Source: Planctomycetota bacterium
GTDB lineage: Bacteria; Planctomycetota; UBA1135; UBA2386
Assembly: GCA_965228735.1 (NCBI GenBank)
Contig: OZ245838.1
Location: 1,024,001 to 1,088,000 of the forward strand
Reading direction: 5' to 3'
Length of the DNA stretch: 64,000 nucleotides
The notes below the pieces were generated by a model. That model ran no database searches. It had not been told where the DNA came from and was given only the letters and a program-made list of their open reading frames with translations. A program made the translations under genes and the position numbers. The first letter of the stretch is position 1. Every line of letters starts with the position of its first letter. Of this stretch, positions 2 to 52,236 are shown piece by piece.

Positions 2-769
2 GTGGTCAAGGTGTTCAGTGCGGCAACCGGCGCGACCCTGCGCTCCTGGAGCCTACCCAGCACCGCCTTCGGTCGGTTTCTCGACGTCTCCGACGTCGAT
101 CGGGACGGCGTGCTCGATTACCTGTCGTCGGGTGACGGATTGTATCCCGTCGGACTGCGCGTCTATTCCGGTCGTGATGGCAGCCAGATCCTGTTCTTCG
201 AGCCGTTCAATCCAACCGGTGGCTCCAACCCGGCACCAGTCGTCGCCTTGCCGCCGGGGCCGCACGAGCTGTTCGGGCGCTTTCTCTACAACGCCCGAAC
301 AGTGAATCTCTGGGGTGAGCACTTCCTGTTCTCGGAAGCCCCGGCCACAACCCAGTTCGTGGCGAGGGCATGCTCAGGAACGCTGCCTGCGCCGCCCGTC
401 ATTGGGCTACGCGAACTCTACGACCAGAACAACCAGCGTGACGGCTTTCGGGTTCTGCTGTCGGGTGCGCCCGCCGGTGCCGCCGCATTCCTTGTCCTCG
501 GCCTCACCGCGCCAGCCCGGCCATTCGTGAACCTCGGGGCGTTTGGTTTCCCTGGCTGCCGCCTAGTGCCCTGGCCCGACGAAGTGGGCTTATTGCTGAC
601 CGGCAACGGCGGCCTCGATGCCGGCTTTGCCTACCACGAATTCGACCTCCCGCTCGTCGAGACGCCGACGATGGCGGGGCTCGATGTCTTCACGCAGTGG
701 CTCGTGCTCGGAGCAGGCCCGGCGCTGTCAGGCGGAACCAGCGAGGCTCTGCGGATTCGCGTGCAGTAG
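2..769 (+). CDS. 5'-truncated FG-GAP/VCBS-repeat protein ending in the shared two-Cys module
   Basis: FGRFLDVSDVDRDGVLDYL (DxDxDG FG-GAP motif) and VYSGRDG; C-terminal ~135 aa RAC...GFPGCRLVPWP...FTQWLVL...SEALRIRVQ; ORF runs off the window start. Confidence 0.7.
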   Translation: MVKVFSAATGATLRSWSLPSTAFGRFLDVSDVDRDGVLDYLSSGDGLYPVGLRVYSGRDGSQILFFEPFNPTGGSNPAPVVALPPGPHELFGRFLYNARTVNLWGEHFLFSEAPATTQFVARACSGTLPAPPVIGLRELYDQNNQRDGFRVLLSGAPAGAAAFLVLGLTAPARPFVNLGAFGFPGCRLVPWPDEVGLLLTGNGGLDAGFAYHEFDLPLVETPTMAGLDVFTQWLVLGAGPALSGGTSEALRIRVQ

Positions 770-917
770 ATCCGAGTTCGAGATTGGCCGACGCCGGTGC
801 TGCGGATGCTGTCGATGTCCCCCTCAACGCATAGCCGCTACTGCATCGGAACGGTAACCGCAGGCACACACGATTCGCGCATGTGCGGTTGCGGTGTTCT
901 CCGACTTTGAGGGTAAG

Positions 918-1000
918 TGCGGGGGGAGGGACTCGAACCCTCACGACCCGAAGGTCTGCGGCTTTTAAGGCCGCTGCGTCTGCCATTCCGCCACCCCCGC
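918..1000 (-). tRNA. tRNA-Leu(TAA)
   Basis: Reverse complement GCGGGGGTGGCGGAATGGCAGACGCAGCGGCC-TTAAAA-GCCGC...GGGTTCGAGTCCCTCCCCCCGCA: anticodon TAA, long variable arm, TTCGAGT T-loop, no encoded CCA. Confidence 0.95.
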
Positions 1001-1057
1001 GTGTTCAGGGTGGCCGCAGCCGGCGGGCCAGCCTGCGCGTGCCGACCCGGAAGGAAG

Positions 1058-1131
1058 TGGAGGTCGCGCCCGGAATCGAACCGGGGTAGACGGATTTGCA
1101 ATCCGTTGCCTAACCACTTGGCTACGCGACC
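1058..1131 (-). tRNA. tRNA-Cys(GCA)
   Basis: Reverse complement GGTCGCGTAGCCAAGTGGTTAGGCAACGGATTGCAAATCCGTCTACCCCGGTTCGATTCCGGGCGCGACCTCCA: anticodon GCA, U73 discriminator, encoded CCA. Confidence 0.96.
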
Positions 1132-1295
1132 TTGCGGCGAGAACGGTAGCCCGCGGTGGGCGCGGATCAAGGGCCTGTCCCTAGTCCTTGCCCCGGCCCG
1201 ACCGGCGCCATGCAAAAGCGCGGGACGTCGCGCGGGCGTTGCCGTATCGTGCGCGGTCCGACCCCTCGCCGCCATCCGGCGGCGCAAGAAGCCCA

Positions 1296-1538
1296 GTGAA
1301 GACCAAGAAGAACATCCACTTCGAGTTCGCGCAGGAAATGGTGCGCGAGCCGCTGCTCTACAAGATCAACCGCTCCTTCGACGTCGTCGTGAACATTCGC
1401 GGCGCGTCGGTCACCGATGAGGGGGGCTTCATGGCCCTCGAGCTCCAGGGTGAAGAGGACGAGGTCGAGCGCGTGATCGAGTTCTTGAAGGGGCAGAGCG
1501 TCAAGCTCGGGGAGGGGCTCGGGAGCTACGAACAATGA
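1296..1538 (+). CDS. stand-alone NIL-domain protein
   Basis: 80 aa from GTG: EPLLYKINRSFDVVVNIRGASV...GFMALELQGEEDEVERVIEFL, typical NIL pattern; stop overlaps the ggt ATG. Confidence 0.75.
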   Translation: MKTKKNIHFEFAQEMVREPLLYKINRSFDVVVNIRGASVTDEGGFMALELQGEEDEVERVIEFLKGQSVKLGEGLGSYEQ

Positions 1539-3241
1539 AGTTCGCGATCTTCGCCGTGCTCGCGCTCGGGTGGGGCCACGGGCCCGATTCCGGCCACGAT
1601 CCCGGCGCCCGCGCCGCGACCCCCAACGACATGGTCGCGCGCGGCAAGAACGGCGCGGTCGTCACGGCCGAGCCGCATGCGACGGCGGCCGGCCTGCGCA
1701 TCCTGCAGAACGGCGGCAACGCGGTCGACGCGGCGGTCGCGGTCGCGCTCGCGCTCGCCGTGACCCACCCGCAGGCCGGCAACCTCGGCGGCGGTGGCTT
1801 CATGCTCATCCGCATGGCGGACGGCCGGACCGCGGCGCTCGACTTCCGCGAACGGGCGCCCGCGTCCGCGACCGCGGACATGTACCTGCGCCCGGATGGC
1901 AGCGTCGACGCGGACAAGTGCAAGTGGGGGGCTGCGGCAGCCGGTGTCCCGGGCAGTCCGGCCGGGTTGCTGCTCGCGCTCGAGAAGTACGGCACGGCCT
2001 CGATCGCGCGGGTCGCGCGCCCGGCGATCCGCCTGGCGCGGGAAGGCATTCCCGTCAGCCAGTTCCTCGCCGGGGCGTTGCGCGGCAAGCGCGCGATCTT
2101 CGCGCGGTTCCCGTCGACGCAGAAGGTGTTCTGGCGCGACGGCGCGCCGCTGCAGCAGGGCGAGCTGCTCGTGCAGGAGGATCTCGCGGGCACGCTGGAA
2201 CGGTTCGCCAAGAAGGGCCTCGCAGGCTTCTACGGCGGCCAGACCGCGAAGCTCATCGCGGCCCAGATGCAGCGCGATGGCGGCTACGTGACCGAGCGCG
2301 ATCTCGCGGCCTACTCGGTTCGCGAACGCGAGGTGTTGCGCGGTGAGTATCGCGGGCACGAGGTGCTCAGCATGCCGCCGCCGTCATCGGGCGGCGTCGC
2401 CGTGCTGCAGATGCTCGGGATGCTGGCGCACCACGACCTGCGGGCGATGGGGTTCGGCAACAGCCGATCGATCCACCTGCTCACCGAGGTCATGCGCCGG
2501 GCCTACGCCGACCGGTCGCGCTGGCTCGGGGACCCGGACTTCTTCGACGTGCCGATCGCCGGGTTGATCGGCGCCGAGTATGCGAAGGAACGCGCGGCGA
2601 CGATCGATCTCGAGCAGGTCAGCGAAGTCGCGCCCGGCGCGCCGCCCGGCAAGGGTAGCGACGACACGACGCACTTCTCGGTCATCGACAAGGACGGCAA
2701 CGTCGTCTCGTGCACGACGACGATCAACAGCACGTTCGGGTCGGGTCTCGTCGTCGACGGCGCCGGGTTCATCCTCAACAACGAGATGGACGACTTCTCC
2801 GCGAAGCCGGGGGTGCCCAACCAGTTCGGGCTCGTCGGCGGCGAAGCCAACAAGATCGAACCCGGCAAGCGCATGCTGTCGTCGATGACGCCGACGATCG
2901 TGCTCGAGGACGGTCAGGTGCGGCTCGTGCTCGGCGCGCCGGGCGGCGGCCGGATCATCACCGCGGTGCTGCAGGTGCTGCTCAACGTCGTCGATCACGA
3001 GATGGGGCTCGAGCGCGCGGTGCGCGCGCCGCGGATCCATCACCAGTGGCTGCCCGACCGCATCACGTGGGAACCCTTTGCCCTGCCGGGTGATGTCCGC
3101 GAGGCACTCGCCAAGAAGGGGCACGAGTTCGCGGCGCGATCGACGAGCATCGGTCGGGTGCAGGCGATCGAGGTGCTCGCTGACGGCTCGCGCCGGGCCG
3201 TGTGCGATCACCGCAGCGGCGGTTCGGCTGCCGCCTATTGA
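1535..3241 (+). CDS. ggt: gamma-glutamyltransferase
   Basis: GGNAVDAAVA, GNLGGGGF, DFRERAP, nucleophile in DTTHFSVID, LNNEMDDFS, PGKRMLSSMTPT; signal peptide. Confidence 0.95.
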   Translation: MKFAIFAVLALGWGHGPDSGHDPGARAATPNDMVARGKNGAVVTAEPHATAAGLRILQNGGNAVDAAVAVALALAVTHPQAGNLGGGGFMLIRMADGRTAALDFRERAPASATADMYLRPDGSVDADKCKWGAAAAGVPGSPAGLLLALEKYGTASIARVARPAIRLAREGIPVSQFLAGALRGKRAIFARFPSTQKVFWRDGAPLQQGELLVQEDLAGTLERFAKKGLAGFYGGQTAKLIAAQMQRDGGYVTERDLAAYSVREREVLRGEYRGHEVLSMPPPSSGGVAVLQMLGMLAHHDLRAMGFGNSRSIHLLTEVMRRAYADRSRWLGDPDFFDVPIAGLIGAEYAKERAATIDLEQVSEVAPGAPPGKGSDDTTHFSVIDKDGNVVSCTTTINSTFGSGLVVDGAGFILNNEMDDFSAKPGVPNQFGLVGGEANKIEPGKRMLSSMTPTIVLEDGQVRLVLGAPGGGRIITAVLQVLLNVVDHEMGLERAVRAPRIHHQWLPDRITWEPFALPGDVREALAKKGHEFAARSTSIGRVQAIEVLADGSRRAVCDHRSGGSAAAY

Positions 3242-3277
3242 GTTCGCCCGCGCCGTGCGGCAACCTCCCGAGAGCCC

Positions 3278-3958
<681 letters not shown>

Positions 3959-4032
3959 GGCCGCGGCTTCTGCTTGTGTGCCGCCTCGGCAAGCCGCTAA
4001 CCTTCCGGACGAACCGTTGACCCCCGCGACGA

Positions 4033-5007
4033 ATGAGTGACATGGCCTGGACTCGCTTCGGCAAGAAGAAAGACATGCCCGGTGGGCTGTGGATCAAGTG
4101 CGAGTCGTGCGGCGCGATGCTCTTCCGCAAGGAGTTCGAGCAGAAGCACCGCGTGTGCGGCAATTGCAGCCACCACTTCACGCTCAACGCGCGCGAGCGC
4201 ATCGCGCTGACGACGGACGCCGACTCGTTCGAGGAGCTGTGGAGCGACGTCAAGGCCTACGACATCCTCGGATTCGTCGACAAGATGCCCTACGGCGACA
4301 AGCTCAAGGCCACGGGCAAGAAGACCGGCGAGGCTGACGCCATCGTGACCGGCTTCGGCAAGATCAAGGGCATCGACTGCGGGCTCGGGGTGATGAACTT
4401 CGCGTTCCTCGGCGGGTCGATGGGCATGGTGGTCGGCGAGAAGATCGCGATGCTGTGCGAGGCCGCGGTCGAGCGCCAGGTGCCGGTCGTGCTGTTCGCC
4501 TGCTCCGGTGGCGCGCGCATGCACGAGGGCGCGGTGTCGCTGATGCAGATGGCCAAGACCTGCGGCGCGCTGACGCGGCTGGACAAGGCCGGGCTCGTGT
4601 CGATCTCCGTGCTCACGCACCCCACGACGGGTGGCGTCACGGCGTCGTTCGCCTCGGTGTGTGACCTCACGATCGCCGAGCCGGGCGCGCTCATCGGCTT
4701 CGCCGGCCCGCGCGTCATCGCGACGACGATCAAGAAGGAGCTGCCGAAGGGCTTCCAGCGCTCCGAGTTCCTGCTCGAGAAGGGGCAGATCGACCGGATC
4801 GTAGCGCGGTCGGAGCTGCGCGACGAACTCGGTCGCCTGCTCGCGTACGCGACGGGCGCCGATCCGGTCAAGGCGTTCCAGCCCGACGCGGTGGACGAGC
4901 CGGCGGACGACGCGGGCGAGGCCGAGGCCGAGCAGCCCGCGATGGCCGCGGCCGAGGGCAAGGCCGGCAAGCCGGCGCGCCGGAAGACCAAGAAGAAGAA
5001 AGAGTAG
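4033..5007 (+). CDS. accD: acetyl-CoA carboxylase carboxyltransferase beta subunit
   Basis: LWIKCESC...VCGNCSHH zinc finger, GGSMG, SGGARMHEG, PTTGGVTASFA, GFAGPRVI. Confidence 0.96.
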   Translation: MSDMAWTRFGKKKDMPGGLWIKCESCGAMLFRKEFEQKHRVCGNCSHHFTLNARERIALTTDADSFEELWSDVKAYDILGFVDKMPYGDKLKATGKKTGEADAIVTGFGKIKGIDCGLGVMNFAFLGGSMGMVVGEKIAMLCEAAVERQVPVVLFACSGGARMHEGAVSLMQMAKTCGALTRLDKAGLVSISVLTHPTTGGVTASFASVCDLTIAEPGALIGFAGPRVIATTIKKELPKGFQRSEFLLEKGQIDRIVARSELRDELGRLLAYATGADPVKAFQPDAVDEPADDAGEAEAEQPAMAAAEGKAGKPARRKTKKKKE

Positions 5008-5035
5008 TCGGCTGCCGCACGACATCCGGAAGCCG

Positions 5036-6073: not shown

Positions 6074-6085
6074 TTCAGCTGCGGG

Positions 6086-16292: not shown

Positions 16293-17912
16293 GTGCGTCA
16301 CGCCACTCGCATCGCGGTCGTCGTCTGCGCCGGCCTCGCAGCCGTTCCGGCCCAGGGCTTCCCGAACGTGATGGAGGTCGGGCCGGGCTGCGGCGCAGCC
16401 CAACCCGGGCTCCGTGCGTCCGTGCCGGTTCTCCACACGAGTGTGGAATTCGAAGTCACGAGCAGTGCAGCAACTTGGGGCGTCTTGGCCGTAAGTTTTC
16501 CACCGTCTTCCCCAACGCATGTCGGCGCTGGATGCGTGGCGTACGTCGACCCGGCCACGGCGGTCGTGCTCGGCATCCTGCCGACCGGGCGAGCGCAGCG
16601 CCTCCTCGACCTGCCCGCGGATCCCGCGTGGCTCGGCGTCACGCTGCGGGTGCAGGCTCTCACGACGCCGTCGGCGGCCGCGATCGGCTTCGACCTGACG
16701 CCGGGTCTCGAGGTCATGATCGGTCAACGCGCGGGGCCGCTCGCGGGGTTGCCGTCGCCGGCCGGGGCCCACACGACGTTGGTGGCCGGGATGGCGCCGA
16801 ACAGTTGGCTCGATCTCGGCGTGCCACAGCCCGATCCGGTCCACGGCCTCGCCACGGGTCGGGAGTACACGCCGCGCATGGCGTGGTCGGAGGCGCTGCA
16901 GGGCGCGTTCCTCACGGGCGAGAGCGGGCACGGCTACGTCAACACGCAGACGGGTCGCTACGTCGACGACGTGTGGTTCTACGACTGGCGCGGCCACGCC
17001 TGGCGCTGCGTCAAGCCGGGCAGCGAGGTGGCGACGCTCGCGTTGCAGCTCGACGGCAATCAGTTCGAGATCGATGGCCAGGGCCAGCTCGTGCCCGTCG
17101 CGCAGCTCGGACACGGGTACGAGTTCGTCGCGTTCGATGACTGGACCGAGACGTTCTTCATGCAGCCGGCGCCCAACACGTACTGGGTCGCCTCGATGCC
17201 GCAGCGGCTCGGGTGGCTGCCGAACGGCAACGCCAGCTTTCCGGCGTCGCAGTATCGGTCGCCGTGGTTGTTCGAAGCGGTGACCGGTTCGTGGCGGCGC
17301 GAACCGGTGGGGGCGAACGCGCCGAACTTCAACGTGAGCGCGCGCGGCATGGCGGTGCAGGCGATCGACTCGCGATTCTGGGTCTTCGACACGGCGGCGG
17401 CGAATCGCTCGCGGATCTGGTGGTTCGATCCCGTGACCTACGCCTGGCACGACGAGCCGACGGCCAACCTGGCGCCGGCGATCGCCGGGCACGGCATCAC
17501 GTGCCACGATCCGGTGCATGGCCGCGTCTACTACTACGGCGTCGACGCGACGACGCAGACGGCGCGGCTGTGGTACTACGAGGTCGCGACCAGCCGTTGG
17601 CACCATGTGAACGTGCAGGGGACGCCGCCGCATTCCGTCGTCTACACCACGGCGGGGCGCGGGTTGCTGTACGACGCGGGCGACGACGCCGTGCTGCTGT
17701 GGATGAGCGGCGGCGCGAACGTGCCGGTCGTGCATCGCTTCGACGTCGGGGCGCAGGCGTGGGCGGCCCCGGTGTCACCGCCGGCCGCGATACGACCGTT
17801 GTTCGCCTGGCGGCACCTCAACGGGTTCTCGGTCCCGAGCGACGACGTGCACGTGTTCCACGCTGCCGGTGGCAATGCCGGGACCGGTCGAATGATCGGG
17901 TACCGGCACTGA
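16293..17912 (+). CDS. secreted protein: N-terminal two-Cys module plus Kelch-like beta-propeller
   Basis: Signal peptide ending VPAQ; GPGC...GAGCVAYVDP...LRVQAL...LTPGLEVMIG module; blade motifs DVWFYD...W, IWWFDPVTYAW, LWYYEVATSRW, HRFDVGAQAW. Confidence 0.65.
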   Translation: MRHATRIAVVVCAGLAAVPAQGFPNVMEVGPGCGAAQPGLRASVPVLHTSVEFEVTSSAATWGVLAVSFPPSSPTHVGAGCVAYVDPATAVVLGILPTGRAQRLLDLPADPAWLGVTLRVQALTTPSAAAIGFDLTPGLEVMIGQRAGPLAGLPSPAGAHTTLVAGMAPNSWLDLGVPQPDPVHGLATGREYTPRMAWSEALQGAFLTGESGHGYVNTQTGRYVDDVWFYDWRGHAWRCVKPGSEVATLALQLDGNQFEIDGQGQLVPVAQLGHGYEFVAFDDWTETFFMQPAPNTYWVASMPQRLGWLPNGNASFPASQYRSPWLFEAVTGSWRREPVGANAPNFNVSARGMAVQAIDSRFWVFDTAAANRSRIWWFDPVTYAWHDEPTANLAPAIAGHGITCHDPVHGRVYYYGVDATTQTARLWYYEVATSRWHHVNVQGTPPHSVVYTTAGRGLLYDAGDDAVLLWMSGGANVPVVHRFDVGAQAWAAPVSPPAAIRPLFAWRHLNGFSVPSDDVHVFHAAGGNAGTGRMIGYRH

Positions 17913-30477: not shown

Positions 30478-33063
30478 TCAGTTGCCGATCCGCAGGTTCA
30501 GGGCGTTGGACGACGTCATGCCGAAGCCGTTGGCCTGCAGGTCCCCTGCGAACAGCTGGGCGTAGAATCGCGTGCCGAGCAGCGCCGTGAACGGGCCGAT
30601 CGGCAGGTCGAGATCGCACTCACCCTGGGCGTCCGAGTAGCCGTCCCGGATGACGTCAGGTCGGACGAGCAGCATGCAGCCCGGGGCCTGGAAGGGCGCG
30701 AGATCCGCGGGCAGCGCGTTGCCGAACCACGACGTGTTGTTCCAGCCCTGCAGCAGCCAGACGGGTCGCTCGGGCACGAGGTTCGTGCCCGTGAACGTGA
30801 TGGTCTCGCCGATGCGCGGGGCCGTCGACGACAGCGCCGGCGTGCCGTTGGTTCCCACACAGCCCGCGCCGAACGGCTGTCCGTCGGGTTCGGTGATGGT
30901 CGTCGTCCACATGCCGCGGCCGTGGGTGCCGACGAGCAGCGTCTCCGTGCCGCGCACGAACGTCACGGACTCGCAGCTCACGTCGGCAGGCCCAGCGTTG
31001 GTGGTCGACCAGGACGCGCCGTGGTCCGAGGTGCCGTAGATGCCGAGCTCCGTCGCGGCATAGTAGCGGCCGTCCAGGGTCGGGTGCTGCGCCAGGTCGT
31101 AGACCGGCGCGGCCGGGACACGGGTGGGCCAGGTGCCGGTCGCATCGCTCCACGAAGCGCCGGTGTTCGTCGTGCGCCGGATGTTGCCGGCGAAGAAGCC
31201 GCCGAGCCCGACCATGACCCGGCTCACGCTGACGCGATCGACGAGAATCGAGGTGATCATGCGATCGGGGAACGGATCGAGCGCGCCGTTGTCGTCTACC
31301 GTGATCCAGGACGGGGTGCCGGCCGTGGCGTTCCCAGTACGGTAGACCCGGCCGTCGTTGTAGCCGATCCAGACGGTGTTGGTGCTGTTCGGCGAGATCC
31401 CGATCGCGCTGATCCTGGAGCCGATCGGGCCGCGAATCGCGGTCCACGTCGGCGACGCCGAGCGCGCGTTCGAACAGCGCCAGAGCGAGCACCCGCCGGC
31501 GAACAGGTAATTGGTGTTGATCGCCGAGAGCTCGAGCGGTGCGACGAAGTTGGCGCACTGGGTCGCGTGATCGAGCAGGGTGGTCGCGATGAAGTTCACG
31601 CTCTGGGCGCCGTTCCAGGTTTGATGCACGCCGAGATGCGGCGTCGCGCCCCAGAACAGGTTCTCGTCGGTCGGGTCGATGAGCGAGATCGTGCCGTGTC
31701 CGCCGTAGATGCGCTCGGCACCCATGCCGCTGGTGGAGTCGATCAGGTGGCTGCCCGTGTCCTGGGCGCCGCCGACGAGCCGGCCGAGGACGTGGCCGTC
31801 GACGCCGTAGTATTGCGTCACGCGGTAGCCGTCGTTGCGGGCGGTCCAGTCGTGATTCGAGGGGATGTTGATGACTGCGTTGGCATACCACAGCCCCTCG
31901 GCCGTGGCGGTCCAGAGCCGCCCGTTGCTCGCGAAGTTGGTGTCCTCGGCGAACGCATGGAAGTGGTCCTGGGGATGGTCCGGATCGTTGCGGCCATCGG
32001 TGAGGCGGAAGAAGGCCTGGCCACCGTTCGGGCTGCGATACAGGTCGCGGTTGCCGATCAGGAGATAGTTGGCGTTCGTCGGATGGGCCCAGATCACGTT
32101 CGAGCGATGCCAGTCCGATCCCGGGATCGGATTGCTCGAATGCGACGACCAGCTCTGCCCGCCGTTCGTGCTGCGCCAGCAGTGGCCGCCGCCGAGGCTC
32201 GCGAACATCAACTGATTCACCGATGCGGAGTAGGCGAGCTCGATGCGTTGCCCCGCGGGATAGCCGGGCGTTGCGTCGGTCCAGGTGACTCCGGCATCGG
32301 TCGTCCGCATGATGCCGTAGGTCGTGGGGTCGGACGTGCGCCAGACCGCGGTCAGTCGCAGCGGATGGTTGGGATCGAGCAGGACCTGGTAGCAGTCGCG
32401 GTGGTCGCGCGCGGTCCAGGTCTGGCCGCCGTCATCGGAGAGCCGCAGGCCCGTCGCCGTCGCGGCGAGGACCCAATCGGTGTTCGTCGGAATGATCGCG
32501 AGCCGGTTGACGGCGCCGAAGTGCTCCGTGCCCGGCAGCTGCGTCCAGGTCGCGCCGGCGTCGTCCGTGCGGAAGATGCCGTCCCCGCGGATCGCGCCGT
32601 GGTTGCCGTAGCCCTCGCCGGTGCCGACGTAGATGACGTCGGGATCGACCGGATCCATCGCCATGCTCGCGACGGCGAGGTTGCCCATGAATTCCGCGAG
32701 CGGATACCACGTGGCACCGCTGTTGTCGGAACGCCAGACGCCGCCGCCGACCGAGCCGGCATAGATCCGGCCGGTGATCGTCGGGTGAACGAGGAGCGCC
32801 CGCGTGCGACCGCCCATGTTGTCCGCGCCGCGCTCGGTCCAGCTGTAGTTTCCGATGCCGCCGCCGAAGTCCTCGTTGTCCCAGTGGTCGAGGTTGGCGG
32901 CGCGTTCGGCCCGCGCGCGGCGCATGGCGGCCGGCGCGATCTGGCCGTTCGCGTCGACCATGCGCTGGCGACGGAACTCGATTGCGGGATCTTGCGGGGC
33001 CGCCGACAAGGTCGGGGCCGCGGCCGCGAGCAGAAGAGCGGAGATGAAGATGCGTCGTGTCAT
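30478..33063 (-). CDS. secreted BNR/Asp-box (VPS10/GH74-like) beta-propeller protein with C-terminal two-Cys module
   Basis: Multiple Asp boxes (SDNSGATW, TDDAGATW, SDDGGQTW, STNGGQSW, SDHGASW), GTHGRGMW, signal peptide. Confidence 0.8.
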   Translation of the reverse strand: MTRRIFISALLLAAAAPTLSAAPQDPAIEFRRQRMVDANGQIAPAAMRRARAERAANLDHWDNEDFGGGIGNYSWTERGADNMGGRTRALLVHPTITGRIYAGSVGGGVWRSDNSGATWYPLAEFMGNLAVASMAMDPVDPDVIYVGTGEGYGNHGAIRGDGIFRTDDAGATWTQLPGTEHFGAVNRLAIIPTNTDWVLAATATGLRLSDDGGQTWTARDHRDCYQVLLDPNHPLRLTAVWRTSDPTTYGIMRTTDAGVTWTDATPGYPAGQRIELAYSASVNQLMFASLGGGHCWRSTNGGQSWSSHSSNPIPGSDWHRSNVIWAHPTNANYLLIGNRDLYRSPNGGQAFFRLTDGRNDPDHPQDHFHAFAEDTNFASNGRLWTATAEGLWYANAVINIPSNHDWTARNDGYRVTQYYGVDGHVLGRLVGGAQDTGSHLIDSTSGMGAERIYGGHGTISLIDPTDENLFWGATPHLGVHQTWNGAQSVNFIATTLLDHATQCANFVAPLELSAINTNYLFAGGCSLWRCSNARSASPTWTAIRGPIGSRISAIGISPNSTNTVWIGYNDGRVYRTGNATAGTPSWITVDDNGALDPFPDRMITSILVDRVSVSRVMVGLGGFFAGNIRRTTNTGASWSDATGTWPTRVPAAPVYDLAQHPTLDGRYYAATELGIYGTSDHGASWSTTNAGPADVSCESVTFVRGTETLLVGTHGRGMWTTTITEPDGQPFGAGCVGTNGTPALSSTAPRIGETITFTGTNLVPERPVWLLQGWNNTSWFGNALPADLAPFQAPGCMLLVRPDVIRDGYSDAQGECDLDLPIGPFTALLGTRFYAQLFAGDLQANGFGMTSSNALNLRIGN

Positions 33064-33077
33064 CGCGGCGTTCCGTG

Positions 33078-35339
33078 TCAGAACCGGAGCGTGAGACGGA
33101 CCCGTTCGGAGAACGAGATGTTGGCGAATGCAGCGCACGGCGAGGCCGAGGTGTTGAGCAGCACCCATTGCACGTCGAACTCGCTCCCGACGAAGGGCGA
33201 CGTCGAGCAGGGCATGGGCCAGGCGTAACGGGCGGAGGATCCGACCTGCGGGGTGAAGACCGTCGCGAGCGGGGTGATGTACGTGCACGGTCCGCACGAC
33301 TGGGTCGGCCCCGGCAGGGCGAGGAGCAGGATCGGCAAAGTGCCGGACGGGAGCCCGCCTAGGCCGAGGAAGTGATCCTCGTTCCCGGGCGCGAACGGCC
33401 CACCCTGCAGCGGGTTCAGCGCAGTGTTCTCGCCGCACCCCGGGCCCAGCACCCCGGGCGCCTCGCCGGCCAGCGCGGTCATCCGCTGCATGACGATGCT
33501 GCCACTGAACGGCGGCGCATCGTCGGCTTCGGCGAAGACCACCAGCGCGTCGTCTCCGGGAAACCCGGACGAGACCCGGCCGGCGATCGCGGGGGCGAAC
33601 TCGCGATTCCGCAGCACGGTCGTGTTGAGCCCGCCGAGGGTCACGCGCGGGCCGCACGGTGCGCACGAGTGGTCGAACTCGACGGTCTGGACGTCGTAGT
33701 TGAACGAGCCCGTGATGACCTGCCTGGAGAACGCGAGGATGAACTTGTGTTCACAGAACGCGATCGCGGGTTCGCCTTCGTCGATCCCGGGGATGTCAGC
33801 GATCGGCACGGCAGGCGCGACGTTCTGCAACGCGGAACCGTTCCAGCGGATCGGACGCGCATACACGTCGGTCTCCATGTAGCCCACGCCGGACTCGCGC
33901 GCTTCGTAGACGACGACGAAGTCCGTGCCGTCGCCGTCGACGTCGCTGCGCTCGGGCGGTGAGAGCAGAGCGCCGGTCGCGATGGTGAGAGCATTGCCGA
34001 GCAGCGCGCCGTTCGCATCGCAGGCCCGCGCCCGGATCGCCGGACTGGTGATGACGAGGTCGTGATACGTGATCACGGCGACGTCGAGTCCGAACGGCGA
34101 CTTGCTGATCGCCGGCCACTTGGCCGACGCCGTCGTGTCGACCATGGTCGTGCCGGTGACGACGGGCAGCGCGCCGCCGCCCGCGACGTCGACGCGCGCG
34201 AGTCGGACGCCGGCACCCTGCAACGTGTAGACGATCAGCACGTCCTGGCCCGCGCCCAGGGTGTTGCCGGCCGCGTCCGGATCGAGCTCCTCGGCTGCCG
34301 TTCCCGCGACTGTGACCGGGAGCGTGGCGGCCCCGGTCGTCGCGTCGATCGACCGGCAGACGATGTTGCGGTCGTCGAACAGGCTCGGGGCCTCGTGCCA
34401 GGTCACGAGGAAGTCGCGGCCCTGCCGCGTCGCCGCCGCGGACGGCGGGCCGACGTCCGGACTGTTCCCGAGGGAGATGAACGAGCCGACGAGCGTGCCG
34501 TCGCCCTGGACGCGTTGGGCGCGGATCCCCACGAGGAGCGAGGAGAAGCGCCGGCGATAGACCACGAGGTAGGTGTTCTGGAAGCCGCTGTAGGCGACGT
34601 CGGGAGCGCCGTCGTCCCACGCCTGATTCGTCGTCCCGAGCAGCTGCGTGCCGATGAGCGGGTCGAGCACCAGCGGGTAGGCGCAACGGTCCACGAAGCT
34701 CGCCGGCAACCTGAGCTCGAGGACGTCGTCGTCGACGTGCAGAGTTCCGGGCGTCGTGTTGCCCAACGCATCGACACCGGACACGGTGCCGATGCTCACC
34801 CCGCCCACGTCGGGCAGCGTGAGATGCAGACCCGTGTGGTCGACCTGGCGCTCCGGAAGGTTGCTCGCGAGTCGGTAGCGCACGACGAGGTCGCCGTGTC
34901 CTGGCGGCGGCGCGTCGAAACGCCAGCTGAGCTCGAGTCCATGCGGGGTCACGGCGAAGCGTTCCGTCGCGCCCGCCCCCCGGGCGATCTCGACCCGCTC
35001 ACCGATGGCGACTGCAGGAGCGATGCGCGCCGGAGTCGCGGCGCCGGACGCGCGCCCGAACGAGATCGGCTGCAGGTCGAGGTGCTGGGTCGTGGTCGCG
35101 CGTCGACCGAGCGCCGGCACGAACCGCGTTCGGTCCGGACCGATCGCGGCGTGATAGTCCCAGCCGCCGGCCGTGACCGAGTCGCCGGCCTGTTCGATGC
35201 CGATCGCGTCACGCAGATGCTGCGTCGGCGTGTCCGACTGGCCGCGAGCGTGTGCAGCCGGATACGAGGCCGCGAGAAGCAGGAGGAAGTGGCGGAGTTG
35301 CATGGTGCCGTGCCGTTGGATTGGATCGAGCCAGGTCAT
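33078..35339 (-). CDS. secreted beta-repeat protein (paralog B) with C-terminal two-Cys module
   Basis: N-domain ending LELRLPASFVDRCAYPLVLDPLIG; repeats PDVAY...YLVVY; ATGA-coupled to the upstream paralog (alternative start 35303). Confidence 0.7.
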   Translation of the reverse strand: MTWLDPIQRHGTMQLRHFLLLLAASYPAAHARGQSDTPTQHLRDAIGIEQAGDSVTAGGWDYHAAIGPDRTRFVPALGRRATTTQHLDLQPISFGRASGAATPARIAPAVAIGERVEIARGAGATERFAVTPHGLELSWRFDAPPPGHGDLVVRYRLASNLPERQVDHTGLHLTLPDVGGVSIGTVSGVDALGNTTPGTLHVDDDVLELRLPASFVDRCAYPLVLDPLIGTQLLGTTNQAWDDGAPDVAYSGFQNTYLVVYRRRFSSLLVGIRAQRVQGDGTLVGSFISLGNSPDVGPPSAAATRQGRDFLVTWHEAPSLFDDRNIVCRSIDATTGAATLPVTVAGTAAEELDPDAAGNTLGAGQDVLIVYTLQGAGVRLARVDVAGGGALPVVTGTTMVDTTASAKWPAISKSPFGLDVAVITYHDLVITSPAIRARACDANGALLGNALTIATGALLSPPERSDVDGDGTDFVVVYEARESGVGYMETDVYARPIRWNGSALQNVAPAVPIADIPGIDEGEPAIAFCEHKFILAFSRQVITGSFNYDVQTVEFDHSCAPCGPRVTLGGLNTTVLRNREFAPAIAGRVSSGFPGDDALVVFAEADDAPPFSGSIVMQRMTALAGEAPGVLGPGCGENTALNPLQGGPFAPGNEDHFLGLGGLPSGTLPILLLALPGPTQSCGPCTYITPLATVFTPQVGSSARYAWPMPCSTSPFVGSEFDVQWVLLNTSASPCAAFANISFSERVRLTLRF

Positions 35340-37606
35340 TCGACGATGACGCGCAGCGCGTCGGACAGGTCCGAGCTGAAGAGCGGGCAACCGGGCGCGA
35401 CGGGCTCGTAGATGACCCATTGCGCATGGAGCTGCACGCCGACGACGGACGACGAGTTGGGGATCGGCGCGGCGAAGACGGCGCGCCCGTAGGTGTCCGT
35501 GACGTCGGCCACGACGAGTCCGTTGAACGGATCCGCTACCATCTGCCCCGTGCCGCACGGCAGCCCGAAGAAGTCGCGGCTGACCACGAGCCACGCCGGG
35601 TAGCTCGCCTTGCGCGAGTAGAGCCTGGCCTCGAACGCCGAGCGCCCCTGGTGCGGGCAGAACGTGAACTGCGAGCCGTGACCCGGCCCGCACGAGCCGC
35701 CGAGGTTGTGGGCTTCGCCGTCCTCGCAATGCCAGCGTTGCGCGAGGATGTTGGACCCCGCGGTGCCCTGGTAGTCGTAGTCCTCCATGACGAGCAACAT
35801 GTCGTCGGCGGCGGTGCTGCCACCCGACGCCTTGCTGCAGCCCTGCAGGTTCCAGGACCAGCGCAGCGGACCCTGCAGCCACCCGAGGGTGGTGCCTTCG
35901 CAGAACGTGCAGTTCGCCGGATCGATCGACGCGAGGTAGCAGTGGTATTCGCTGCCGCTCTCGTCCGACCAGCCGAGGACGGCGGAGTTGCCGGCCATGA
36001 TGACCTTGGGGCCGAACTCGTGATCGTTCTGGTCGCCGTGGACGCGGACGATGTTGCTCGTCACCTGCGCCTGGCTGCCGGTCGGCCGGACCGGAACGTA
36101 GGTCAGCGTGCGGCAGTCGATGTCGTACTTGGTCGACGACGCGCTCTCCTCGGTCTGCCACGCGACCACGAACTGCCAGCCGTTGCCGTCGACGTCGATC
36201 GAGATCTGATCGAGACTCGAGCTGCTGAGCGGCAGCAGGCCATGCCGGATGCCGATGTTGCGATCGATCAGGCAGATCGCGGGGTTGCGGTTGCTCGTCG
36301 AGTACTGGCGTTCGAACGCGACACAGAGAATTCCGAGGTCGCCGCCGCTCTTGCTGATGCGCGGGTACCGCGGCGTGATGCTGTTGCTCTGGTAGAGCGT
36401 CGTGAGGCCGAACGAGCCCAGCTGCCCGGTCGTGCCGACCGTGATCTGCTTGGCCATGATGCTGTTGGTGGTCTGGTTCCACCACACGCACACGGCTTCG
36501 TCGTCGAGCGTCGTGGCTTCGCCCGCGACATCGGGTGCCCACTCGACGTCCGAGCCGACGGCGATGTCGTGCTGCAGACGCACGGTGCCGTTGCTCGCGT
36601 CGACCGAGCGGGCGACGATGTCGTTGGCGCGCGTGTAGACGACGACGAAATGGTCTCGCAGGTTGACGTTGGCGACGACCGGGTCGTACTCGTTCGTCGA
36701 CGCCGTCTGGATGTAGACGCGGCCACCGAGGAGCCCGCCCGAGCTGCTGACCCGCTGGCCGTGGATGTCGGTGTCCGTGGCGGAGAACCGGCGCTCGAAC
36801 ACGACGAGATAGGTGTTGGTCGTCGCGTCGTAGGCGACGTCCGGGTCACGATCGTTGAAGTTGGACGTGTACGCGGCGAACACGTTGCCGATGAGCGGGT
36901 CGATCGTGAGCGGCAGTGCCGCTCGGTCGACGAACGCGGCCGGCAGCCGTAGCTCGAGCTTGCCGCGGTCGTATTGCAGGGCGCCGGCCACCCGATCGCC
37001 ATTGGCGTCGATGCCGGTCACGCCGCCGATCGTCAGACCGCCGACATCGGCCAACTCGAGGCCCAGCCCGTCGCCGCGCGGCGCAACCGTGAGGGCGGTC
37101 GTCAGCCCGACTTCGACGACGAGATCACCGGTTCCGAGCGGCAGCTCACGCACCACGAAGCTCTGTTCGATGCCGGCGGCGCTCACGTCGTAGCGCTCGG
37201 TCACGGCCCCGCGGTCGTACTCGACCCGCAGTCCGGCGTGCGACCGGCTCGGCGATTCCGTCAGCAGGGCCGGCCCGCCGCGATGAACCCGGTCGAACCC
37301 GAACGTCACGGGCATGGAGCGCGGTGCATCGACGAGCGCCGGCGTGAACTCGAGTCCGCCCGGGAGGAAGCGCGCCTTGAACGCTCGCCCATGGGCCCAG
37401 AGCGTGTCATCGCGAAGCTCCAAGGCCGCGGTCTCGGGGAAGCCGCGCGTCGCGCCGGAGAGCGCGACGCCCTCGGCGGTTGCCCGGGCCGGCGTGGCCG
37501 GACCGTGGCTGGGGCCTCGTTGCGGGATCTGAGCGAGGATCGGCACGGCGAACAGCAGCGCGGCGAGAGCCGAACGCGGCGCGGTGCGGCGAAAGTGGCG
37601 GGGCAT
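35336..37606 (-). CDS. secreted beta-repeat protein (paralog A) with C-terminal two-Cys module
   Basis: N-domain ending LELRLPAAFVDRAALPLTIDPLIG; PDVAYD...YLVVFERRFS; GGAG RBS; signal peptide ending ILAQ. Confidence 0.72.
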   Translation of the reverse strand: MPRHFRRTAPRSALAALLFAVPILAQIPQRGPSHGPATPARATAEGVALSGATRGFPETAALELRDDTLWAHGRAFKARFLPGGLEFTPALVDAPRSMPVTFGFDRVHRGGPALLTESPSRSHAGLRVEYDRGAVTERYDVSAAGIEQSFVVRELPLGTGDLVVEVGLTTALTVAPRGDGLGLELADVGGLTIGGVTGIDANGDRVAGALQYDRGKLELRLPAAFVDRAALPLTIDPLIGNVFAAYTSNFNDRDPDVAYDATTNTYLVVFERRFSATDTDIHGQRVSSSGGLLGGRVYIQTASTNEYDPVVANVNLRDHFVVVYTRANDIVARSVDASNGTVRLQHDIAVGSDVEWAPDVAGEATTLDDEAVCVWWNQTTNSIMAKQITVGTTGQLGSFGLTTLYQSNSITPRYPRISKSGGDLGILCVAFERQYSTSNRNPAICLIDRNIGIRHGLLPLSSSSLDQISIDVDGNGWQFVVAWQTEESASSTKYDIDCRTLTYVPVRPTGSQAQVTSNIVRVHGDQNDHEFGPKVIMAGNSAVLGWSDESGSEYHCYLASIDPANCTFCEGTTLGWLQGPLRWSWNLQGCSKASGGSTAADDMLLVMEDYDYQGTAGSNILAQRWHCEDGEAHNLGGSCGPGHGSQFTFCPHQGRSAFEARLYSRKASYPAWLVVSRDFFGLPCGTGQMVADPFNGLVVADVTDTYGRAVFAAPIPNSSSVVGVQLHAQWVIYEPVAPGCPLFSSDLSDALRVIVE

Positions 37607-45856: not shown

Positions 45857-45883
45857 CGGGAGCGGGAGCGGGAGCGGGAGCGG
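45857..45883. repeat. (CGGGAG)4 hexamer microsatellite encoding PLPLPLPLP
   Basis: CGGGAG x4 + CGG in the YraN-transferase linker. Confidence 0.8.
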
Positions 45884-46009
45884 CGTGCCACGGCGCCCGG
45901 CGCGGCCCTCAGGAGGTCGGCCCTGAGCGCGTCCGTGCGGGGTCTTGTTCGGACCATCGGGGCCAGGCGCTAGAGCGCGACCCGGACCGCCGACAGCATG
46001 GTCCCTTCG

Positions 46010-46925: not shown

Positions 46926-47050
46926 GTCGGGGCCCGCGGTCGTCGCCGGCGCGGCATCGTGCACGGCGGGGCGGATGGGGGTGCGAAAAGGGCGAGCAGT
47001 ATAGGGCGCGAGGCGGTTGCATAGGAGGCCCTTGTCGGCATCCTGCCGGA

Positions 47051-48160: not shown

Positions 48161-48245
48161 TCGGCCGGCTCGACGGCTCGGCTGGCTCGCCTCATCGGTT
48201 GGCTCGGGGTGGGCGAGGCCTCGAAACGACGCGGGCCGGTCCTGC

Positions 48246-48335
48246 CGGACCGACCCGTGCCCCGAACGCCCTTGCTCGGACGTAGCGTTCCCGGACGCCC
48301 GTGCTTCGGCCGGCCGTTTCTCCGACGCCGCGCCT
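48246..48335. repeat. degenerate 15-bp tandem array (about 6 units) between convergent mnmA and hup
   Basis: Units such as CCCGAACGCCCTTGC, TCGGACGTAGCGTTC, CCGGACGCCCGTGCT, TCGGCCGGCCGTTTC. Confidence 0.4.
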
Positions 48336-48373
48336 TAAATTGCGGATTGGTAGCCGCGGCGGGCGCGCCGGGA

Positions 48374-48649
48374 TCAGACGCTGTCCTTGAGCGTCGCACC
48401 CGGGCGGAACCCGACCGTGCGGGACGCCGCGATCTGCATCGGCTCGTTGGTGCGCGGGTTGCGGCCCATGCGCGCCTTGCGGTCCTTCACCTGGAAGGTG
48501 CCGAACCCGACGATCTGGACCTCCTGGTCCTTCTTGAGCCCGGACTGGATCGAGGCCAGCAAGGCGTTGACCGCCCGCTCTGCGTGCGCCTTGCTGCAGT
48601 CGTCGCCGATGTTCTTCTGGACCTCTTCGATGAGCTCTGACTTGTTCAT
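48374..48649 (-). CDS. hup: DNA-binding protein HU
   Basis: MNKSELIE, VQIVGFGTF, RKARMGRNPRT, FRPG; GGAG RBS. Confidence 0.93.
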   Translation of the reverse strand: MNKSELIEEVQKNIGDDCSKAHAERAVNALLASIQSGLKKDQEVQIVGFGTFQVKDRKARMGRNPRTNEPMQIAASRTVGFRPGATLKDSV

Positions 48650-48917
48650 TCTTGCTCCTGATGCTCCCTGATCGCGCGCTGCGCCACCGTGGCGCCCGCG
48701 CGGCCGACCATCGTAGGGTGCCAGGGCGCGCGATGCCATCGAGCACGCGGAATCGTGCCAGGGACAGGACTTGCGGTCGATCGAACCCGCGGGGCGGAGA
48801 GCGAATCTGCGGGTTCCCCACCGGACCGGCTCAAGCCGGCGGCAGGGTCCTGCCGATGCCATGGTCATGGGAGCCCGGGTGCTCCTGCGCACCCCCGAAC
48901 ATTCAGAGGACATACCA

Positions 48918-49946
48918 ATGCGGACCGCGGCCTTCGCTGCCACCATCCTGCTTTCTCTCGCGGCGTGCTCGACGACCCCCAAGAAGGTCAAGAGCGCCTA
49001 CGACCAACCGAACGACCTCATGGCGGTCGAGATCAGCCGCCGCGTCGAGCAGATCCCGTATCTGCACCGCGAGGAGCTGCTCGAGAACCTGCTCTGGCTG
49101 AGCCAGACCGGCGAGCAGACGATCCCGTCGCTGCTCGAAGCGCTGAACAACGACAGCCCGAAGGTCCGCAGCTCGGCGGCCTGGGTGCTCGGTCGTCTGC
49201 GCGATCGTCGCACGATCCCGCAGCTGCAGAACGCGCTCAACGATGCGGAGCCGACCGTGCGCTTCGAAGTCGCGCGCACGCTCGTCGTGCTCGGTGACCT
49301 CGAGCCCGCGCCGATCCTGATCGAGGGCCTGGACAGCGAGCGCAAGGAAGTGCGCTACCTGTGCCACGAGGCGCTGAAGAGCGCGACCGGCCACGACTTC
49401 GGCTTCGACCACCTCGCGATGAGCCAGCAGGACATGCGCCAGTCGGTTCTGAAGTGGCGGCAGTGGTGGGGCGACTACTCGGGCGACGCGGCCTTCGCGA
49501 TGACCTACGAGCGCCAGCACGGCCTGAACCAGCCGGAGCCGATGGGCCAGCCTGCGCAGCCGATGGGCGAGACGCAGCCCCAGAGCGGCCAACAGCAGAA
49601 CGGCCAGCCGCAGGGCTCGGAGAACCCGGAGAGCGCAGCCGGCAACCCGGCGACCGGCACCGAGAGCAGCGCGCCGAGCCAGCCCGAGAACGAGAACCCG
49701 GGCTCGACCACGCCGCCGCCGACCGGCTCGAACCAGGAGAACCCCGAGAACGAGAGCGCCATCGAGGTCACCCCGGTGCCGGTCGTCGAGATCGAGAACA
49801 CGACGCCGAAGGCCGAGTCGAGCGACAAGCCGCAGGTCGTGCCCGTGCCGATCCCGATCGGTGAGCCGAGCAAGCCCTCTGGCAACGGCGGCTCGAGTAG
49901 CGGCAGCAACGGCAGCAGCAAGAGCAACGGCAGCGACGGCCGCTAG
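48918..49946 (+). CDS. HEAT-repeat lipoprotein with low-complexity tail
   Basis: Lipobox LAAC; VRSSAAWVLG, VRFEVARTL, LIEGL repeats; WRQWW; Pro/Glu/Ser/Asn-rich C-terminus. Confidence 0.8.
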   Translation: MRTAAFAATILLSLAACSTTPKKVKSAYDQPNDLMAVEISRRVEQIPYLHREELLENLLWLSQTGEQTIPSLLEALNNDSPKVRSSAAWVLGRLRDRRTIPQLQNALNDAEPTVRFEVARTLVVLGDLEPAPILIEGLDSERKEVRYLCHEALKSATGHDFGFDHLAMSQQDMRQSVLKWRQWWGDYSGDAAFAMTYERQHGLNQPEPMGQPAQPMGETQPQSGQQQNGQPQGSENPESAAGNPATGTESSAPSQPENENPGSTTPPPTGSNQENPENESAIEVTPVPVVEIENTTPKAESSDKPQVVPVPIPIGEPSKPSGNGGSSSGSNGSSKSNGSDGR

Positions 49947-50228
49947 GCCAGCGCCGCCGCGGTTCGGGCCTCGGGGTTCGAGCCGCGCACCCGGCCGGCG
50001 CGGCCGAGCGCAGGGACCCTGACCACGGGGTGCCCCGCCGCCGCAGCCGCCGAAAACCCCGCGCGCGACCGCGCCGGGCTCCCATGCCAGCGCGCGGTCT
50101 CCGGCGCACGCCCGTTCCGCGACTGCACCCCGGGGTTTCCCGCTTGCTGGCAATCGACTACCCTTTCGGTGCCCCTCTGGCTCCGCGGAGCCGCCACACC
50201 GTTTCCGTCCCGAAAGGAACCTTTGCCG

Positions 50229-50906
50229 ATGCGCAAGTCCACTTCCGGCCAGGCCAAGACCGGCCAGACCGGCTTCACGCTGATCGAGCTGATGATCGTC
50301 ATCGCGATCATCGGTTTGCTAGCTGCCGTCCTGCTCCCCAGCATCTTCGAGTCGCAGGACGCGGCGAACACGTTGGCTGACAGTCGCAATCTCAGTCGTC
50401 AGTTCGATTGGCTGAATAGCTACAAGCGCAAGCACAACGGCGCGCTGCCCATGAAGGGTGGCTACAGATTCGTCATGGCGCCATGGACGTCCGGCGTGGT
50501 GCAGCAAACGCCCGAGAACTGGGACCGCTATTGGACTCCCGGTCCGGGGCGCGATCAGGACCCGGCCTATCAGGAGCGCCGCACGGAGCTCTTGGCCGGC
50601 AACAAGATCTTCACGAACATCGAGTCCGTGACTTCGCAGGACACCAGCTACGTCGGCCGATCGCGCGACCACATCCGCACCGCGGAGCAGAGCGAGAGCG
50701 AAGCGTGGATGGCGAACGACAACGAATACGGATGGAGCCTGCGTGACGGTTCAGTGAATGTGCTGTTCGCCGGTGGCGTTGTTCGGACCTACAGCTACCA
50801 AATGCTTCGGGAGTTGTACGGCCTTGAAGAGTTCGACGTGAACAACCCCGTGCAGACCTACGGTGGCAACTCGCCGATCGAGGCTTGTCAGAGGCTCGAT
50901 AACTGA
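50229..50906 (+). CDS. prepilin-type N-methylation protein (DUF1559-like)
   Basis: GFTLIELMIVIAIIGLLAAVLLP; VNVLFAGG.V resembles a degenerate H-X9-DG motif. Confidence 0.8.
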   Translation: MRKSTSGQAKTGQTGFTLIELMIVIAIIGLLAAVLLPSIFESQDAANTLADSRNLSRQFDWLNSYKRKHNGALPMKGGYRFVMAPWTSGVVQQTPENWDRYWTPGPGRDQDPAYQERRTELLAGNKIFTNIESVTSQDTSYVGRSRDHIRTAEQSESEAWMANDNEYGWSLRDGSVNVLFAGGVVRTYSYQMLRELYGLEEFDVNNPVQTYGGNSPIEACQRLDN

Positions 50907-51132
50907 TCGAGATCTGCGTCTCCTCCCGGCCAAACGCAACGGGACGCCGACCCTGGCCAAGCTCGCCAGCCGGCCGCTGCCATTGGCCTTGGCTGCGTTG
51001 CGCTCGCAGGGACGTTCGCTCCTTTTCGAGCGAGGACAGCGACATTGGAGCGCGCTATGGGCCGCTCGCCTAACTCCCTGAACGACCGGTAGGGCGGTCG
51101 CCGAGTGGCGACCGCGTCGTCGTGGAACGCGA

Positions 51133-52236
51133 CTAGAAGAACAAGGTCACCGGGACCGACGTCGAGACACTCCCGCTCGCCGCGGCGCGGTTGCTGCTGT
51201 TCACGATGCGCATCGTCGGGATCGGGGTCGGGCCGGGTGGCTGCGTCACGATCGTGATCCCGTTGCTGAACGTGAGATCACCGGTGCCGAGGTGGGCGGT
51301 GCCGGCCTGCAGCCAGAGGCGATAGCCGGCGGGCAGCACCGGCAGGTTCTGCAGCATCGCGTCGTAGCGACCAGCCGTCGTCATCGTGCCGGGCATCGCG
51401 TACCAGGCGTCGTGCGTCGAGTAGAGCGTGCAGGCCGGCAAGCTCGGCCACGTCGGGTTGGTGCCCGGGCGCGTGCTGAGGCCGAGCCACGCGCGGGTCA
51501 GGCCCGTGCCGTCCTCGGGGATGCCGTTGCGCACGCTGAGGTCGATCTCCATCCCCGTGCCGATGTGCCACAGGGTCGCGTTCGCCGTCGTCGGTGAGGT
51601 CGCGTTCGGCGCGGGGCAGCCCTGGCCGAAGCGGTAACCCGGCTGCTCGGCCTCGCCGTTGCTGTTGGTCCGGTGGCCGTCGAGGTAGACGCTGAAGTTC
51701 TGGTCCTGGGCGCCGCCGACCGAGTTGCCGTAGACCGTGACGTCGACGCAGACCGTGCCGCCGCCCGCGGGCACGACGAACGGCGTCTGGTAGGGCACGA
51801 GGAAGTCGAACTGCGGGGCCGGATCGATCGCCGGCCGGGTGTTGGCCTGGAACGAGATCGGGGTGCGCGGCAGGACCACGACCGGATTGCTGCCCACGTT
51901 GCTCGCGAACGTGCCCGCGGCCTGGTCCGGCGCGTTCGGCGACATGGAGATCGTGACCTCGAGCTCGCTGACGAACGCCGGACTGTCGCCGTAGAGGCCC
52001 GCGGCGTCGCGCCGGTAGCCGTGGCCCGCGATCACGGTGCCGCCCGGGACGTCGGCGTGCAGCGTCTGCATGCGGCAATCGAAGCGGCCGAGCGGGAAAT
52101 GGGTGAACGTGGCGCCCTCGAGCGTGGCCCGGTCGGCCGGCGAGACGGTCGGGGTCTGCGCCGCGAGCGGCGGCAGGCTGCCGAAAACGAGGGTGGCGAG
52201 GAGCGAAAGACGGACGGTCGTGCTGGATTTGTTCAT
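51133..52236 (-). CDS. secreted hypothetical protein containing the two-Cys module
   Basis: Signal peptide ending LAAQ; FGQGC...PACTLY...RLWLQAG...FSNGITI. Confidence 0.65.
   Translation of the reverse strand: MNKSSTTVRLSLLATLVFGSLPPLAAQTPTVSPADRATLEGATFTHFPLGRFDCRMQTLHADVPGGTVIAGHGYRRDAAGLYGDSPAFVSELEVTISMSPNAPDQAAGTFASNVGSNPVVVLPRTPISFQANTRPAIDPAPQFDFLVPYQTPFVVPAGGGTVCVDVTVYGNSVGGAQDQNFSVYLDGHRTNSNGEAEQPGYRFGQGCPAPNATSPTTANATLWHIGTGMEIDLSVRNGIPEDGTGLTRAWLGLSTRPGTNPTWPSLPACTLYSTHDAWYAMPGTMTTAGRYDAMLQNLPVLPAGYRLWLQAGTAHLGTGDLTFSNGITIVTQPPGPTPIPTMRIVNSSNRAAASGSVSTSVPVTLFF

Follow-up and report, generated by a model that had tools for sequence, protein, structure and literature searches.

A window of 64,000 nucleotides of a planctomycete genome (assembly GCA_965228735.1, contig OZ245838.1, positions 1,024,001-1,088,000) encodes six proteins that carry a common module of about 125 residues. 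Profile searches confirm, at the level of sequence, that the six segments are one divergent family of domains, and at least 364 of the 5,341 genes called in the source genome (about 7%, roughly one in fifteen, a lower bound) are carriers. On balance, and with little more than even confidence, we favour the reading that the module is a folded handle that places Sec-exported proteins on the outer cell surface and retains them. The six segments are open frames in the window and lie on the following genes (coordinates are window-relative):

356..766, + strand: module copy 1, C-terminal, on an FG-GAP protein (Pfam) of 545 aa; profile E 1.2e-14. The gene (+ strand) starts 868 bases before the window and has its stop at 769.
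16293..17912, + strand: Kelch-type propeller protein, 539 aa, with signal peptide, module and propeller (PF24681, E 9.6e-10)
16374..16724, + strand: module copy 2, N-terminal, immediately after the signal peptide; profile E 9.6e-15
30478..33063, - strand: 861-aa protein with signal peptide, BNR/Sortilin-Vps10 propeller (Pfam) and module; third gene of a three-gene run
30481..30876, - strand: module copy 3, C-terminal; used to seed the profile and for the structure model, a predicted seven-stranded beta-sandwich
33078..35303, - strand: 741-aa protein with signal peptide, beta-rich body without Pfam family and module; body paralogous to that of the upstream gene
33081..33452, - strand: module copy 4, C-terminal, divergent; profile E 1.4e-6
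35336..37606, - strand: 756-aa protein with signal peptide, beta-rich body without Pfam family and module
35339..35707, - strand: module copy 5, C-terminal; profile E 5.4e-11
51133..52236, - strand: 367-aa protein with signal peptide, beta domain of about 175 aa, module and 36-aa tail; its paralogous subfamily has the same layout
51244..51633, - strand: module copy 6, sub-terminal, most divergent; no match with the genome profiles (hhalign 88.5%, E 2.7e-6)

Pairwise similarity among the six segments is weak (best E 1e-5, most 1e-3 to 0.8), so that the six alone would not prove a family. The source genome (G000; 7.19 Mb, 93% complete) was represented by 61,526 six-frame open reading frames (ORFs) and by our own gene calls. 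A profile seeded by the 30481-30876 copy alone and grown over all of these ORFs until converged matches 292 ORFs at E<=1e-3 and 301 at E<=1e-2, and no reversed ORF. It recovers five of the window segments (E 1e-23 to 1e-6). The sixth (51244-51633) is missed by the profile and aligns over 119 columns (hhalign E 2.7e-6) to an alignment of 80 family sequences, A1, that does not contain it, which upholds the proposal, made in an earlier sequence-only reading of the window, of one module common to six proteins. Searching the last 170 residues of the remaining proteins adds 63 carriers, with no hit in shuffled or reversed controls, and the very many copies which that reading expected across the genome are indeed found. 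The window's six copies compare with a genome mean of 3.2 per 64 kb, and at least six are present in 22 of 112 windows; its density is hence above the mean, though not unusual. The family is visible with profiles only: a homologue search with a single bare module sequence returned nothing, and a single module sequence had no match among the genome contigs.

Pfam bears out the cargo calls FG-GAP, Kelch and BNR (the last as Sortilin/BNR) and finds no family for the other three window proteins. Signal peptides had been noticed on the complete genes, and by inspection the N-termini of all six proteins are signal-peptide-like. The six copies are not all at the C-terminus: the 16374 copy is N-terminal and the 51244 copy is followed by a 36-residue tail. 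Three of the carrier genes are consecutive at 30478-37606 (- strand), with gaps of 32 and 14 bases; a similar three-gene run, paralogous to this one, lies near G000:C1:2480203-2487787 (locus L002).

Genome-wide, there is one copy per protein in 301 of 301 carriers. Of these copies 248 are C-terminal, 25 lie close to the C-terminus (about eleven of them before a tail of 34-45 residues), 13 are N-terminal and 14 near-stand-alone, which puts 300 at or near an end of the protein; the remaining 1 is internal. The five top library matches listed with two stretches each have only one full copy. N-terminal copies mostly start right after the signal peptide, as at 16374. Five paralogs of the N-terminal domain of the 51133-52236 protein all carry the module in the same place. 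In the subfamily of this protein (paralogs in loci L167, L163, L015 and L017) the module is followed by a tail of 35-45 residues that closes in a hydrophobic strand; this tail may complete the N-terminal domain, the module then being an insertion. A structure model of the 51133-52236 protein, made from five sequences, has a pLDDT under 50 over the module and is unusable there.

Median pairwise identity between module copies is 24%, and only G22, P86 and Q99 of the 123-column profile are kept at 90% or more. The two-cysteine pattern first proposed is thus loose: among 292 copies 176 have both cysteines, 83 neither and 33 one (odds ratio 80), a coupling that, among copies that are related, points to a disulfide. 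An AlphaFold2 model of the 30481 copy is predicted with high confidence (pLDDT 97.9) to be a seven-stranded beta-sandwich. Foldseek gave no match for it at E<=0.001, and fold searches gave generic Ig-like matches only, many of them equally good. A comparison with cohesin and with the C-terminal domain used in type IX secretion (T9SS CTD) had been suggested; neither fold is among the best 50 structural matches (Z 7.0-8.4). No transmembrane segment is predicted after residue 45 in 277 of 291 carriers, and the median module charge is -4, in agreement with the earlier statement that there is no membrane anchor or basic tail.

A generic Ig-like fold is common to carbohydrate-binding modules and adhesin repeats, and would suit an accessory domain that binds ligands such as environmental glycans or surfaces and has been spread by domain shuffling, with no sorting role. 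Tolerance of either terminus and the clustering of carrier genes (75 adjacent pairs against 24 expected) point the same way. We nevertheless regard an accessory domain as quite improbable: the module is never repeated and almost never internal among the 301 carriers, sits on about 7% of genes of unrelated function and is nearly excluded from lipoproteins. Genes that encode a signal peptide plus the module only (about eight in G000, and one in G177, a distant 2.4-Mb planctomycete genome) would be the filler of a self-assembling coat, in which the domains pack into a surface layer displaying the passengers. Given the 24% median identity, and with no stand-alone gene being an obvious conserved orthologue between the two genomes, such a coat subunit is in our view highly improbable.

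No module member tested has a sequence match in Pfam, NCBIfam (80 members for these two) or the PDB, and the domain still belongs to no named family, as the sequence-only reading had it. The literature searched by terms, including bioRxiv 10.1101/817700 and PMC11131199, leaves it undescribed in openly accessible text; subscription papers or supplements could hold a description. The profile matches 32,631 clusters at 50% identity. The nearest 30 ESM Atlas clusters have no common Pfam family, and the three displayed ones are mostly Planctomycetota. Close homologues of the window proteins carry the source label Planctomycetota, and 60 of 301 Planctomycetota genomes match the profile (55 with several copies, 5 with one) in a survey that scored at most 14 candidates per genome, so that matches are not copy numbers. 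The matching genomes include all 15 others of the same order and 12 families given only as belonging to the same phylum, and within the phylum the family is lineage-restricted, as had been supposed. G177 has 37 to 45 carriers, 4 of 37 of them N-terminal. Cultured Saltatorellus ferox Poly30 has, in the position of the module, a tail that aligns with it end to end, weakly (hhalign E 5e-4, probability 31%), and cross-matches it at 1e-3 to 1e-6 in a set of 80. This tail is probably a distant subfamily, which makes the role of the module testable.

The passengers of 77 carriers scanned include Kelch, FG-GAP, Rax2/DUF5122 and BNR propellers, M14 and trypsin proteases, and laminin-G, CBM2, lamin-tail and beta-helix domains; no family is assigned to about 30. 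When G000 proteins of at least 300 aa with a cleavable signal peptide are binned by their fraction of Lys+Glu+Arg, the module is found on 145 of 181 below 0.12, on 7 of 57 at 0.12-0.15 and on 0 of 289 at 0.15 or above; many of the low-charge proteins scored as without it close in visibly similar strands. It is on 4 of 80 G000 lipoproteins. The corresponding counts for G177 are 30 with and 18 without the module below 0.10, 1 with and 213 without at 0.14 or above, and 0 of 47 lipoproteins. Because beta-rich folds are low in charge anyway, fold was controlled for by paralogs: over the aligned regions of same-family proteins, charge is lower in the carrier than in its partner in 62 of 68 pairs, or for 22 of 25 distinct carriers (p 1e-5), and several of the low-charge module-less paralogs are lipoproteins. 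The compositional split of the secretome by the module is solid, and it likely separates the outside from the periplasm. Extracellular proteins use cheaper residues than periplasmic ones, according to PMC2932507. Near absence from lipoproteins fits a role of the module in place of a lipid anchor.

A few low-charge exported proteins end in another shared domain, MAM-like by eye, that closes in a strand of Gly-Asp-Ile-Ala/Cys-Ile-Asp-Asp type:

G000:C1:891893-895546: protein with the MAM-like end domain
G000:C1:5689984-5691477: protein with the MAM-like end domain
G000:C1:2954022-2955896: protein with the MAM-like end domain
G000:C1:7038007-7040904: protein with the MAM-like end domain

Homologous passengers show what else can occupy the position of the module. 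Among the best 120 homologues of the window BNR protein, with tails labelled partly by eye, 43 have the module tail, and others have dockerin-like, SLH, GlyGly-CTERM-like or other domains (SLH ends P0208 and, by eye, GlyGly-CTERM-like tails end P0236 and P0255). In G000 as well as in G177, the gene of a PF28492 passenger lies next to that of a TonB-dependent receptor, and this TonB-receptor operon is the only neighbour of carriers found to be conserved beyond chance. The passenger's 120 homologues have the module tail in 65 cases and a dockerin-like tail in 18 (10 with a precomputed PF00404 match), and in 80 genome loci 59 tails are module-type, 9 dockerin-like, 9 other and 3 open, the receptor being inside 48 of these loci. 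Of 45 module-negative genomes, 4 have dockerin expansions (at least 11 matches), against 0 of 35 module-bearing ones, as counted with PF00404, which overlooks many dockerin-like tails. The swaps support the view that the module would fill a slot taken elsewhere by anchoring or sorting tails. The sequence-only reading had put it in the slot of a T9SS CTD or MYXO-CTERM; unlike these signals the module is not strictly C-terminal, and none of the 240 homologues examined has a T9SS CTD in its place. Five homologues of the TonB-receptor-linked passenger (P0273, P0275, P0282, P0329, labelled Omnitrophota, and P0356) share a very short tail in which Trp/Phe and Tyr stand close to the end; it may be a further sorting signal not yet described.

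T9SS CTDs have a YPNP-like start and about 70-80 residues. Type A (TIGR04183/PF18962, Bacteroidota) is like the module in being a single terminal seven-stranded beta-sandwich (predicted, for the module) on many unrelated Sec-exported proteins, and in labelling a large share of the secretome. The module is unlike it in having about 125 residues and a cysteine pair, and in being also N-terminal (13/301) or near-stand-alone (14/301). TIGR04183/PF18962 is matched by 0 of 80 module members and nowhere in the genome (control silent), and motifs B, D and E are not in the module (GxY near the end in 6/292, YPNP-like in 0/292); the GxY of motif D is conserved in T9SS CTDs, according to PMC11969387. Dockerin-like tails (PF00404) of Phycisphaerae and other Planctomycetota have the same position on orthologous passengers, with expansions that do not co-occur with the module, which in contrast is all-beta and Ig-like, with no PF00404 match and the duplicated calcium-binding motif in 0 of 292 copies. 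PEP-CTERM, MYXO-CTERM and GlyGly-CTERM are, like the module, lineage-specific paralogous tails on exported proteins, whereas the module is a folded soluble domain without transmembrane helix, basic tail or NCBIfam match, and is not bound to the C-terminus. SLH (PF00395) is a non-covalent envelope anchor that can stand at either end; the module does not match it and is neither helical nor repeated. On the sequence features tested, the module is outside the T9SS CTD, dockerin, SLH and sortase-signal families, yet it is like them in position and use.

A rival reading is a pure export address, in which an outer-membrane translocon reads the folded domain and the proteins are released or otherwise attached, possibly after cleavage of the domain as in type IX secretion. 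The near-complete coverage of the low-charge class with cleavable signal peptides, the single copy that is never repeated and the resemblance of the sandwich to long T9SS CTDs (PMC11969387) are in its favour, but we think it rather unlikely, as copies that are N-terminal or stand alone speak against a cleaved T9SS-type signal (going by the same paper), T9SS motifs are absent and the tails with which the module is swapped are anchors. SprA, PorP and T9SS CTD, and also dockerin, were not found in G000 (three controls silent, genome 93% complete; PorV was not searched for). The only C25 protein, G000:C1:3598143-3600467 (- strand), was rejected as PorU, having no signal peptide, no paralog and no G177 orthologue.

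For a surface handle, the following route can be proposed. Carriers would set out with a cleavable signal peptide and no lipid or membrane anchor, a step visible in the proteins themselves. The domain would fold in the periplasm, where its two cysteines would pair. The folded protein would then cross the outer membrane through a secretin, most simply that of type II secretion (the T2SS), which is encoded in 30 of 30 module-rich genomes tested; this is the weakest step. A Sec signal peptide and T2SS core genes, as expected of type II secretion substrates, are both present, and species with GlyGly-CTERM generally have type II secretion (PMC3237569). Finally, the uncleaved domain would dock non-covalently on a common receptor of the envelope, either a protein or a glycan, and so take the role played on the same passengers elsewhere by a lipid anchor, dockerin-like tail, SLH or GlyGly-CTERM.

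Partners were sought by comparing 2.31 of the 2.36 Mb of G177 with G000 (1,065 reciprocal best hits), where Pfam covered 162 common exported proteins and 100 of 220 common membrane candidates, the other 120 and 177 low-identity soluble ones being outside the scan. G000 has seven secretins. Common to both genomes are GspD/E/F with pseudopilins, a PilM/N/O/Q-type operon, a short secretin with a GspK-like protein, a paired-secretin-TPR-ExbB-ExbD-ExbD cluster and an FHA-PilM-pilin-giant GspK-like cluster. The last two, and a further candidate, are placed as follows:

G000:C1:6769699-6784599 (L148:1699-16599): pair of secretins, each with a long N-terminal region, on either side of TPR, ExbB and two ExbD genes
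G000:C1:1397583-1414788 (L149:2583-19788): FHA-PilM-TPR-pilin cluster that includes a GspK-like pilin of 1,735 aa with no Pfam family
G000:C1:6992590-6994758 (L156:4593-6758), - strand: exported thioredoxin-HEAT-TPR protein, 722 aa, without Pfam family

In several other genomes the paired-secretin and giant-pilin clusters share a contig and lie within tens of kb of each other, and both are widespread across Planctomycetota. The former may resemble Akkermansia mucin-uptake loci, a likeness that a literature search did not confirm. Only tentatively do we suggest that the module is the cargo tag, read folded at either terminus, of an undescribed secretion-and-display pathway in several Planctomycetota classes, maybe served by the paired-secretin, ExbB/ExbD and giant-pilin system, with dockerin-like and other short tails as interchangeable tags in sister lineages.

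Several results weigh against a surface handle. No receptor or dedicated machine for the module was found, and the four candidates, profiled over 80 genomes (30 module-rich, 5 single-copy and 45 module-negative, related ones among them not being independent), tracked it non-specifically, so that the co-distributed machinery anticipated by the sequence-only reading did not emerge. The paired secretin is in 30/30 rich and 5/5 single-copy genomes, yet also in 37/45 negative ones; the giant GspK-like pilin in 29/30 and 5/5, yet in 23/45; and GspD in 30/30 and 4/5, yet in 29/45. All three were rejected as specific partners. The thioredoxin-HEAT-TPR protein tracked the module best (27/30, 3/5 and 2/45 at E<1e-70) but was rejected too, as it was not found in five module-rich genomes (three f36, two g25), and it has the look of a marker of its clade. 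Signal peptides and gene starts were called by home-made heuristics that are often wrong (for the loose version, in 44% of controls), and in this light must be read the enrichment that the strict heuristic gives at called starts (134/291 carriers against 614/3,821 others), although its direction is the one foreseen. Low charge is an indirect marker of location, and by the direct measure known from the literature, average synthetic cost, only 16 of 25 carriers come out lower (p 0.07). By eye, roughly 20 of the 120 homologues of the BNR protein lack any tail, and passengers of usually periplasmic type (di-haem cytochrome c peroxidases, a multicopper oxidase, a sulfatase and a beta-lactamase fold) are among the 77 carriers scanned.

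The haem- and copper-enzyme passengers, the hardly different cost and the failure to find a dedicated exporter would rather suit a periplasmic or compartment-retention tag, by which the carriers stay inside the outer membrane, bound through the domain to peptidoglycan, to a membrane protein or to a scaffold. This we judge improbable: the solute-binding proteins, PPIases, thioredoxins, PBPs and S41 proteases common to G000 and G177 are without the module, charge is split inside the same families, and swaps occur with SLH and GlyGly-CTERM-like tails.

A family of over 32,000 clusters at 50% identity, on about 7% of a genome's genes, is thus nameless in the libraries searched. If the module marks the outward-facing proteome, one profile would predict which enzymes and adhesins are at the surface in several planctomycete classes that are mostly uncultured, and the module would be a rare targeting domain working from either end. 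Such a marker would also bear on where planctomycetes break down polymers, in the periplasm or outside the cell, which is an open question according to PMC11131199.

The 722-aa thioredoxin-HEAT-TPR protein has a thioredoxin-like N-terminus with a three-cysteine motif, 59-85% identical between classes, followed by helical repeats, and is a possible periplasmic folding factor of its clade. Elsewhere in the window, a lipoprotein gene at 48918-49946 (+ strand), with G177 relatives that have HEAT repeats, adjoins a prepilin-type gene at 50229-50906 (+ strand), and relatives of both are found in G177 locus L122.

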